From: Escherichia coli
GTDB taxonomy: Bacteria > Pseudomonadota > Gammaproteobacteria > Enterobacterales > Enterobacteriaceae
Direction: 5' to 3' (one strand)
Assembly (NCBI RefSeq): GCF_036507355.1
Contig: NZ_AP027877.1
Length of the DNA: 64,000 nucleotides
The stretch's first letter is position 1, and each line of letters opens with the position of its first letter. The translations under genes were made by a program, and so were the position numbers. Below the pieces are notes generated by a model. The model had not been told where the DNA came from, ran no database searches, and worked only from the letters and a program-made list of their open reading frames with translations. Shown here in pieces: positions 13,524 through 13,788 of this stretch.

Positions 13524-13788
13524 GTGGACGCTCCTAATTTTTCAGGACGTATTGCAACGATCCAGTCTGGTACTTTGATACCGTAAAATCTGGAGCGTCC
13601 ATCTCATTATCCCTTCCCTGTAAAACGCGCCCTCAGCCCACATCCATGTGGGCTGCCCCGGCCTACAGGAAACGATTCGGCGATTTACAGCCGGACCCCC
13701 CCCGCTGTAATGTCCATGTACCACAGACAACGCTTCATTGCTGAAGTTATAAGGCGTTACGCAGCATCGGGTAAAATGACCGATACCA

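Follow-up and report, generated by a model that had tools for sequence, protein, structure and literature searches.

The 10-nt sequence TGGACGCTCC lies next to the start codon of a recombinase gene in a 64-kb stretch of Escherichia coli DNA (the window), its inverse lies at the other end of the 5' leader, and a further copy is found beyond the gene. This arrangement raised the question of whether the repeats form a leader hairpin which sequesters the ribosome-binding site or mark the ends of a mobile element. The analysis supported both alternatives of the original prediction, each for a different pair of copies. The two outer copies are the left and right inverted repeats (IRL and IRR) of an insertion sequence, and the internal copy most likely pairs with the RNA of IRL, hiding the ribosome-binding site of the transposase gene.

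Three copies of the motif lie within one element

Exactly three exact matches to TGGACGCTCC were found in the window, against 0.13 expected by chance, and none of 100 shuffles reached three. Exact matching was used for this count after a search allowing one mismatch had proved uninformative (4 matches vs. 3.6 expected). All three copies fall inside a single element of 1386 bp on the minus strand (Table 1). With the flanking A/T, the outer pair forms a perfect 11-nt inverted repeat (ATGGACGCTCC at 12227-12237 and GGAGCGTCCAT at 13592-13602, as read on the plus strand), the inverse copy being present where it had been noted. The arms of the leader pair extend to 17 nt with 88% complementarity (13525-13541 and 13585-13601).

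The inner copy had been described as adjoining the ATG and overlapping the Shine-Dalgarno sequence, and the exact match confirmed this. The coding (minus) strand reads GGAGCGTCCA-C-ATG, i.e., TTAGGAGCGTCCAC-ATG, so the GGAG of the AGGAG Shine-Dalgarno sequence (13535..13531) is located within the inner copy, which stops 1 nt short of the ATG at 13523.

Table 1. Positions of the element and its parts in the window.
Feature	Position	Strand	Remarks
Exact copies of TGGACGCTCC	12228-12237; 13525-13534; 13592-13601	+; +; -	
Whole IS1111-group insertion sequence	12224..13609	-	1386 bp by canonical end definition; set from empty and occupied sites
Left target flank with tandem AGGGA-AGGGA	13610..13619	-	One 5-bp copy extra in the window strain
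7-bp left-end extension TAATGAG	13603..13609	-	TAAT gives 4 of 6 bases of the predicted junction -10
IRL, left subterminal inverted repeat ATGGACGCTCC	13592..13602	-	Also 5' arm of predicted leader helix P1
Structured 5' leader (predicted)	13525..13601	-	P1 (10 bp) and P1b (6 bp) closing P2 and P3
Leader inner hairpins (predicted)	P2 13582..13569; P3 13563..13545	-	
Internal third copy GGAGCGTCCA	13525..13534	-	Direct repeat of IRR; 3' arm of predicted P1
Transposase gene	12498..13523	-	341 aa; IS110-family RNA-guided DEDD transposase; NF033542; PF01548 and PF02371
3' non-coding region	12238..12497	-	260 nt; presumed seekRNA/bridge RNA
3' non-coding motifs	ACAGGTAAGACCG 12417..12405; GAGGTAACA 12387..12379; GGATGATTGG 12358..12349; CCGGATATATGGCTGCA 12297..12281	-	
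Outward-facing -35 hexamer TTGCAT	12242..12247	-	Of the predicted junction promoter
IRR, right subterminal inverted repeat GGAGCGTCCAT	12227..12237	-	Within spacer of the predicted junction promoter
3-bp right-end extension ATA	12224..12226	-	Last two bases TA give the first 2 of 6 bases of the predicted junction -10

The element is an insertion sequence of the IS1111 group

The element is an IS110-family insertion sequence of the IS1111 group. Its transposase matched NF033542 with 355.7 bits (cut-off of 140), PF01548 (3e-15) and PF02371 (1e-24). The ends were set from empty sites and from occupied copies in strains 33F4 (L001, the same locus) and SMS-3-5 (L004, a second locus). On the transposase strand, the occupied copies in both strains read TTTTACAGGGA/TAATGAG-ATGGACGCTCC ... 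GGAGCGTCCAT-ATA/TGTTACC, where the slash marks the joint with the target. Because 7 bp lie outside IRL and 3 bp outside IRR, the repeats are subterminal. The far copy at 12227-12237, proposed as a terminal repeat, is thus an end repeat, but the element runs 3 bp beyond it. The perfect 11-bp pair of ATGGACGCTCC and GGAGCGTCCAT falls within the range of 7-17 bp by which subterminal inverted repeats of this group are defined (PMC11208160; PMC11187229), and the element-end alternative of the original prediction holds for this outer pair. A "required 7 bp extension" and a long non-coding region downstream of tnp are described for the IS1111 group (PMC11187229; PMC11208160).

The element resembles the IS1111 group (ISEc11, IS4321/IS5075, ISKpn4 and ISPa11) in its DEDD transposase of about 340 aa, the subterminal repeats of 7-17 bp, the 7-bp left and 3-bp right extensions, the long 3' non-coding region, the fixed target used without duplication and the promoter created at the circle junction, which is predicted here. 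In contrast to the named IS1111 elements, its target is a palindromic E. coli intergenic repeat. No IS name for the element was found in any source checked. The nearest named relatives by transposase were ISYen1/IS1667 (68-69% aa identity) and ISEch3 (65%), and the transposase was at most 72% identical to those of named elements.

The 3' non-coding region shares ACAGGTAAGACCG and CCGGATATA..GCTGCA with the published non-coding region of ISEc11, and the 9 nt of GAGGTAACA are complementary to the right target flank TGTTACCTC. The match to the second strand of the target was weak, comprising GGATG and imperfect flanks only. Based on the location typical of IS1111 elements and on these motifs, the region is presumed to encode the seekRNA/bridge RNA. 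A conserved motif within it, CCGGATATATGGCTGCACC (12279-12293), agrees with the repeat in IRL orientation at 8 of 11 bases, like a degenerate fourth copy, and is complementary to IRR with its extension (12223-12237) over 15 nt at 80%. This motif could form a 3' helix of a long transcript or serve as a donor-end guide of the bridge RNA.

Abutted ends are predicted to form a promoter

When the canonical ends are abutted, the predicted sequence is TTGCAT-TCCGGGAGCGTCCATA-TA/TAAT-GAG-ATGGACGCTCC. The predicted junction promoter comprises a -35 hexamer from the right end, a 16-nt spacer containing IRR and a perfect -10 to which the right end contributes 2 nt and the left end 4 nt. An outward-facing -35 near 12227 had been named as a feature to look for, and the TTGCAT at 12247..12242 gives TTGCAT-N16-TATAAT across the joint. 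The same rule of 7 + 3 bp at the ends was applied to 47 non-redundant relatives with 45-54% transposase identity, among the matches listed, and in 47/47 of these the best sigma-70-like site straddled the joint at the same offset (2 nt right, 4 nt left). The -10 read TATAAT in 22 of the 47, again among the matches listed. The -35 of the relatives was TTGGCA or TTGCAA, with a spacing of 16-18. The junction promoter of ISEc11 is active (PMC11187229). The circle-junction promoter of the present element is predicted from sequence, and with the usual spacing its transcript is predicted to start at nt 3-5 of IRL.

From IRL to the start codon, a scan of the minus strand with the consensus promoter revealed nothing sigma-70-like, and an IS10-like resident promoter between the hairpin arms was rejected for this reason. 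On the plus strand, a promoter-like TTGCCA-17-GATACT (13490-13518) was noticed antisense to the first tnp codons. It would start an RNA at about 13525 running through the whole leader in antisense, comparable with RNA-OUT of IS10 or art200 of IS200. It may be a chance occurrence, since promoter-like sites of this kind were no more numerous in the region than in shuffles (2 vs. 1.8).

The leader is predicted to fold over the ribosome-binding site

For the 88-nt segment running from IRL to shortly after the start codon, the minimum free energy (MFE) was -30.2 kcal/mol (z = -4.0), and none of 200 shuffles was as stable. In the predicted fold, helix P1 pairs nt 2-11 of IRL with GGAGCGUCCA, and P1b, separated from P1 by an A.A mismatch, pairs GAUUUU with AAAAUU. 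P1 and P1b close a three-helix leader of about 80 nt with the inner hairpins P2 and P3, in which GGAG is paired at about 100%. A longer read-through RNA was predicted to form the same P1 helix. The computed cost of opening the ribosome site was 16-18 kcal/mol for read-through or full-IRL RNA, 11-13 kcal/mol for RNA starting at nt 4-5 of IRL and 8 kcal/mol without the 5' arm.

A scan of 11900-13900 against Rfam 15 at E <= 1 returned nothing relevant inside the element, and a mir-611 match in the coding region was discarded as being at chance level (20 bits vs. a gathering score of 90). The SMS-3-5 copy carries GGGGCGTCCA (L004 2068-2077) in place of the GGAGCGTCCA found at 13525-13534 of the window. 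The change keeps the P1 pair as U.G and turns the Shine-Dalgarno AGGAG into AGGGG.

The leader is conserved and co-varies across the group

Absence of the motif from relatives would have spoken against a role, and the motif was found to be present in them. The arrangement TAATGAG-ATGGACGCTCC ... GGAGCGTCCA-N-ATG was kept in every close relative (63-88% aa identity), these being copies from Serratia, Yersinia (ISYen1), Dickeya (ISEch3), Pectobacterium, Jejubacter, Citrobacter and Salmonella and an 88% relative from a sequencing run. A distant set of at least 80 loci with 45-54% identity was obtained, among the matches listed, from a scan of the genomes of 100,044 species. In these distant loci, among the matches listed, IRL-like repeats (ATGG[A/T]CGCCCC and variants) were located 70-85 nt upstream of the start codon.

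A covariance model of the leader (R1) was built from 10 close relatives. Among the matches listed, it placed the leader immediately before the start codon in 46 loci (E < 0.006), and it found normal leaders at loci which the end-repeat finder had missed (L007, L009, L014, L017, L040 and L043). In the alignment of the 46 loci, 92.5% of cells were paired, 16 of 17 pairs changed on both sides and all 10 P1 pairs co-varied. None of 500 shuffles reached any of the five measures used, and sliding the partner by 1-3 columns cut the pairing to 24-53%. The P2 hairpin GGCAUC-N-GUGCC was strongly conserved (97% paired; both sides varied in 4 of its 5 pairs). At two P1 positions, many relatives had C.A in place of a pair (12 and 9 unpaired cells), IRL reading CCCC and the third copy retaining GGAG, which speaks against a strict RNA reading.

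The 46-locus alignment was fitted to R1; therefore, an alignment-free scan and single-sequence folds were run as checks. In the alignment-free scan, the best complement of IRL abutted the start codon with a gap of 0-4 nt in most of the 45-54% relatives among the matches listed. The leader complement changed in step with IRL, as in the pairs GGTCGCC/GGCGACC, GGACTCCT/AGGAGTCC and GTGGACGGCTCC/GGAGCCGTCCAC. Of 56 non-redundant elements among the matches listed, 52 had the first 14 nt paired to the last 22 nt in single-sequence MFE folds, compared with 25% of shuffles. The proposed hairpin over the ribosome-binding site was thus supported as a helix covering the Shine-Dalgarno sequence, within a structure that also holds two conserved inner hairpins.

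The IS4321/IS5075-like locus L086 gave no match to R1 and is without P2 and P3, yet folds IRL onto the start region. At another locus (L050, 725-906), a 95-bp unit consisting of the left extension, IRL, leader and start codon was repeated in tandem with N at each unit border. If real, such a duplication would hint that the third copy is usable as an end. The tandem is probably an assembly artefact and was not taken as such a sign.

The third copy as RNA arm or DNA site

The covariation of P1 alone is not decisive, because the third copy is at the same time a direct repeat of IRR, exact over 10 bp; the next bases are C-AT here and T-AT in IRR. Its changes across relatives follow those of the end repeats, as would be expected of a protein site common to them. 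In addition, it is not known how IS1111 transposases recognize the ends (PMC11187229). The third copy might therefore act as DNA: lying at the start of tnp and matching IRR in sequence and orientation, it would offer the transposase a third binding site, which could serve autoregulation, act as a decoy or a substitute right end, or aid the assembly of the synaptic complex. We consider this unlikely, as several observations point to RNA. The complementarity runs past the part shared with IRR and co-varies there: P1b lies where the inner flank of IRR reads TTCCGG and that of the third copy AAAATTA, and it shows a compensatory exchange of A-U to C-G (4 vs. 4 sequences). In the 46-locus alignment, U.G was found at the first P1 pair in 15 sequences and was the commonest closing pair of P2 (42/46). 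The scoring by R1 was strand-specific (92 bits for the sense and 22 bits for the antisense strand), and a simple site model leaves the conserved nested hairpins without a role. The layout of ISEc11, whose sequence was recovered through its published non-coding region, bears on the same point. Its true IRL is at IS nt 8-20, whereas the leader module is at IS nt 73-156 and uses a 5' arm of its own, GUGGAGCCUC, which differs from the real IRL and pairs with GAGACUCCAC across the Shine-Dalgarno sequence; the energy of this fold, which is not exceptional (z = -1.4), weighs on the other side. For a mini-element of ISEc11 that retains only 50 bp of the left end, transposition is 15-42%, and movement still occurs when a cassette is placed after bp 50 (PMC11187229). 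Since ISEc11 moves with a 50-bp left end which lacks the module, the leader module is not a cis-acting recombination site. The G.U pairs, the compensation outside the repeat, the inner hairpins and the ISEc11 layout together favour RNA pairing of the third copy, with which a regulatory DNA role could coexist.

The helix might also act in RNA in a different manner. Stem-loops at the 5' terminus stabilize E. coli mRNAs, and a start predicted inside IRL would put P1 at the extreme 5' end with no overhang, so that the helix could stabilize the junction transcript or direct its processing, this transcript also being the source of the 3' seekRNA. Co-transcription of tnp and the seekRNA followed by processing has been proposed (PMC11187229). 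However, stability alone does not require the 3' arm to lie on the Shine-Dalgarno sequence and start codon, as it does in nearly all relatives (gap of 0-4 nt), and the ISEc11 module is 70 nt from the predicted 5' end, which makes a purely stabilizing or processing stem quite improbable. A chance match or functionless relic can be given hardly any weight. The anti-Shine-Dalgarno CTCC at the inner end of IRL provides 4 nt of complementarity for free, but three exact 10-mers are far above the chance expectation given above, and the copy is conserved and co-varies in relatives down to 45% aa identity. The comparative data have already refuted this reading.

A probable limit on transposase translation

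The explanation as a whole, i.e., end repeats, a junction promoter and masking of the ribosome site by IRL RNA which limits transposase translation, was assigned a probability of about 0.6. The anatomy of the sequence, its family, the predicted fold with its conservation and covariation, and the geometry of the promoter were established here; from these we infer that the pairing acts in RNA and represses translation, and the transcript start and any factor opening the helix are proposed on the same basis. The function of the leader is most likely to limit transposase translation. The RNA copy of IRL would pair with GGAGCGUCCA, locking away the stretch from the Shine-Dalgarno sequence to the AUG, and translation would be kept low on any transcript carrying the leader.

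In the integrated state, transcripts would come only from outside, because no promoter-like site was found between the arms. The yegH gene is transcribed towards the left end of the element, and its read-through in particular would bear the complete helix. In the circular intermediate, IRL and IRR would come to lie 10 bp apart around the newly formed promoter. A junction transcript starting 3-5 nt inside IRL would have a shortened P1 and a ribosome site cheaper to open by about 4-6 kcal/mol. The hairpin would repress circle-borne transcripts as well, since 7-8 bp of P1, plus P1b, would be kept; circularization would thus lower but not abolish the barrier to translation. The discrimination between transcript origins would be modest and depends on the assumed start site.

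A more tentative proposal, which we regard as possible though not probable, is that the 80-nt leader is an uncurated cis-regulatory RNA family of the IS1111 group and a regulated switch, not a constant brake. Whether the switch is open or closed could depend on the transposase-seekRNA complex (autogenous control) or on where transcription from the junction promoter starts, and transposase synthesis would be tied to circle formation.

Comparison with other insertion sequences

Masking of a Shine-Dalgarno sequence is a familiar principle, and the IS1111 group is already known for its end repeats and junction promoter. In IS200, an inverted repeat of the left end forms a stem-loop in the tnpA leader, which hides the Shine-Dalgarno sequence and blocks 30S binding (PMC4513863). 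The stem-loop predicted here resembles the tnpA 5' UTR in that a left-end inverted repeat masks the Shine-Dalgarno sequence. Unlike in the present element, neither arm in IS200 is an element-end repeat, and IS200, which belongs to an unrelated family with a HUH transposase, is transcribed from a promoter of its own, uses a separate terminator hairpin to counter impinging transcription and makes an antisense RNA.

In the fold-back inhibition of IS10 and IS50, studied in the Kleckner and Reznikoff laboratories, RNA of the terminal repeat pairs with the translation start and transcripts from outside are poorly translated. Fold-back inhibition in IS10/IS50 and similar elements was reportedly reviewed by Mahillon and Chandler in 1998. 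In these elements, a resident promoter lies between the two arms and the native transcripts escape completely. The present element is similar in the predicted pairing of terminal inverted repeat RNA with the translation start region; it differs in that no internal promoter was seen and that the helix of a junction transcript would be only 2-4 bp shorter. For ISPpu9 of the IS110 group, a 5' UTR structure with a repressive effect has been reported (PMC12288879). ISPpu9 belongs to the same superfamily, is without subterminal repeats and has a structure modulated by the sRNAs Asr9 and Ssr9; it is likened to the present leader by description only.

A description of an internal third copy or a leader hairpin in IS1111 elements was not found in the literature searched, in which Partridge and Hall 2003 and Prosseda 2006 were not covered. 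What is new here is an unnamed IS1111-group element and a leader which is conserved family-wide and can be modelled, and the added value is modest. IS1111/IS110 elements are the source of bridge-RNA/seekRNA recombinases, which are under development as genome-editing tools, and the natural control of transposase output is largely unknown in the IS1111 group. An IRL doubling as the anti-Shine-Dalgarno arm, combined with a predicted promoter start inside IRL, offers a testable picture of how expression might be kept down in the integrated element and released in part in the circle. With the covariance model of the leader, the 5' limit and the start codon of such elements can be located in sequence lacking annotation. 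The annotation of the window has gained an unnamed IS1111-group element whose ends are exact, whose target is defined and whose promoter is predicted.

Target site and distribution of the element

The element is located between the asmA (10096-11949) and yegH (13789-15438, minus strand) genes of E. coli. Among 5426 complete E. coli genomes, 175 contained the element, which occupied a median of 2 places in each. The empty site reads GGTAACAT/CCCTGTAAAA (L002, L003), and the unoccupied target ACAGGGATGTTACC corresponds to the occupied ACAGGGA/TAATGAG-IRL ... IRR-ATA/TGTTACC (L004, L001). There is no target duplication at the element, and the AT dinucleotide at the joint is ambiguous. The flanks GCGCGTTTTACAGGGA/TGTTACCTCGCGCC were identical at the asmA-yegH and lysO loci, indicating one specific target used in one orientation. 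The insertion lies at the centre, GGGCGCGTTTTACAGGGATGTTACCTCGCGCCC, of an imperfectly palindromic intergenic repeat of about 190 bp (about 12040-12223 and 13610-13700 of the window), of which there are about 3 copies per E. coli genome. This repeat was detected at asmA-yegH in about 1425 genomes and is absent there from K-12, which carries an uninterrupted exact target, intact and unannotated, between lysO and aqpZ (L099, 3040-3224). For ISEc11, a copy in E. coli C10 (L098, NZ_CP010132.1) was seen to interrupt tnpB of an IS66-family element, so the ISEc11 target GTGAAAATACTG lies inside another IS.

Only the record of strain G4/9 matched the window across the full query length. The left flank in the window reads ACAGGGAAGGGA/TAATGAG, with ACAGGGA-AGGGA before the joint, compared with a single AGGGA (ACAGGGA/TAATGAG) in 33F4 (L001) and SMS-3-5 (L004). 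The extra AGGGA could be a slip at the recombination joint. A REP-type palindrome right after asmA (11973-12045, minus strand) gave a sub-threshold match to naRNA4 of Rfam (33 bits vs. a gathering score of 59.5). The second IS copy of SMS-3-5 (L004, NC_010498.1 908017-913392) is located between lysO and yohP/mdtQ. Because lysO and yohP/mdtQ are more than 1 Mb apart in K-12, this position suggests a chromosomal rearrangement in SMS-3-5 via two copies of the IS or of the target repeat.
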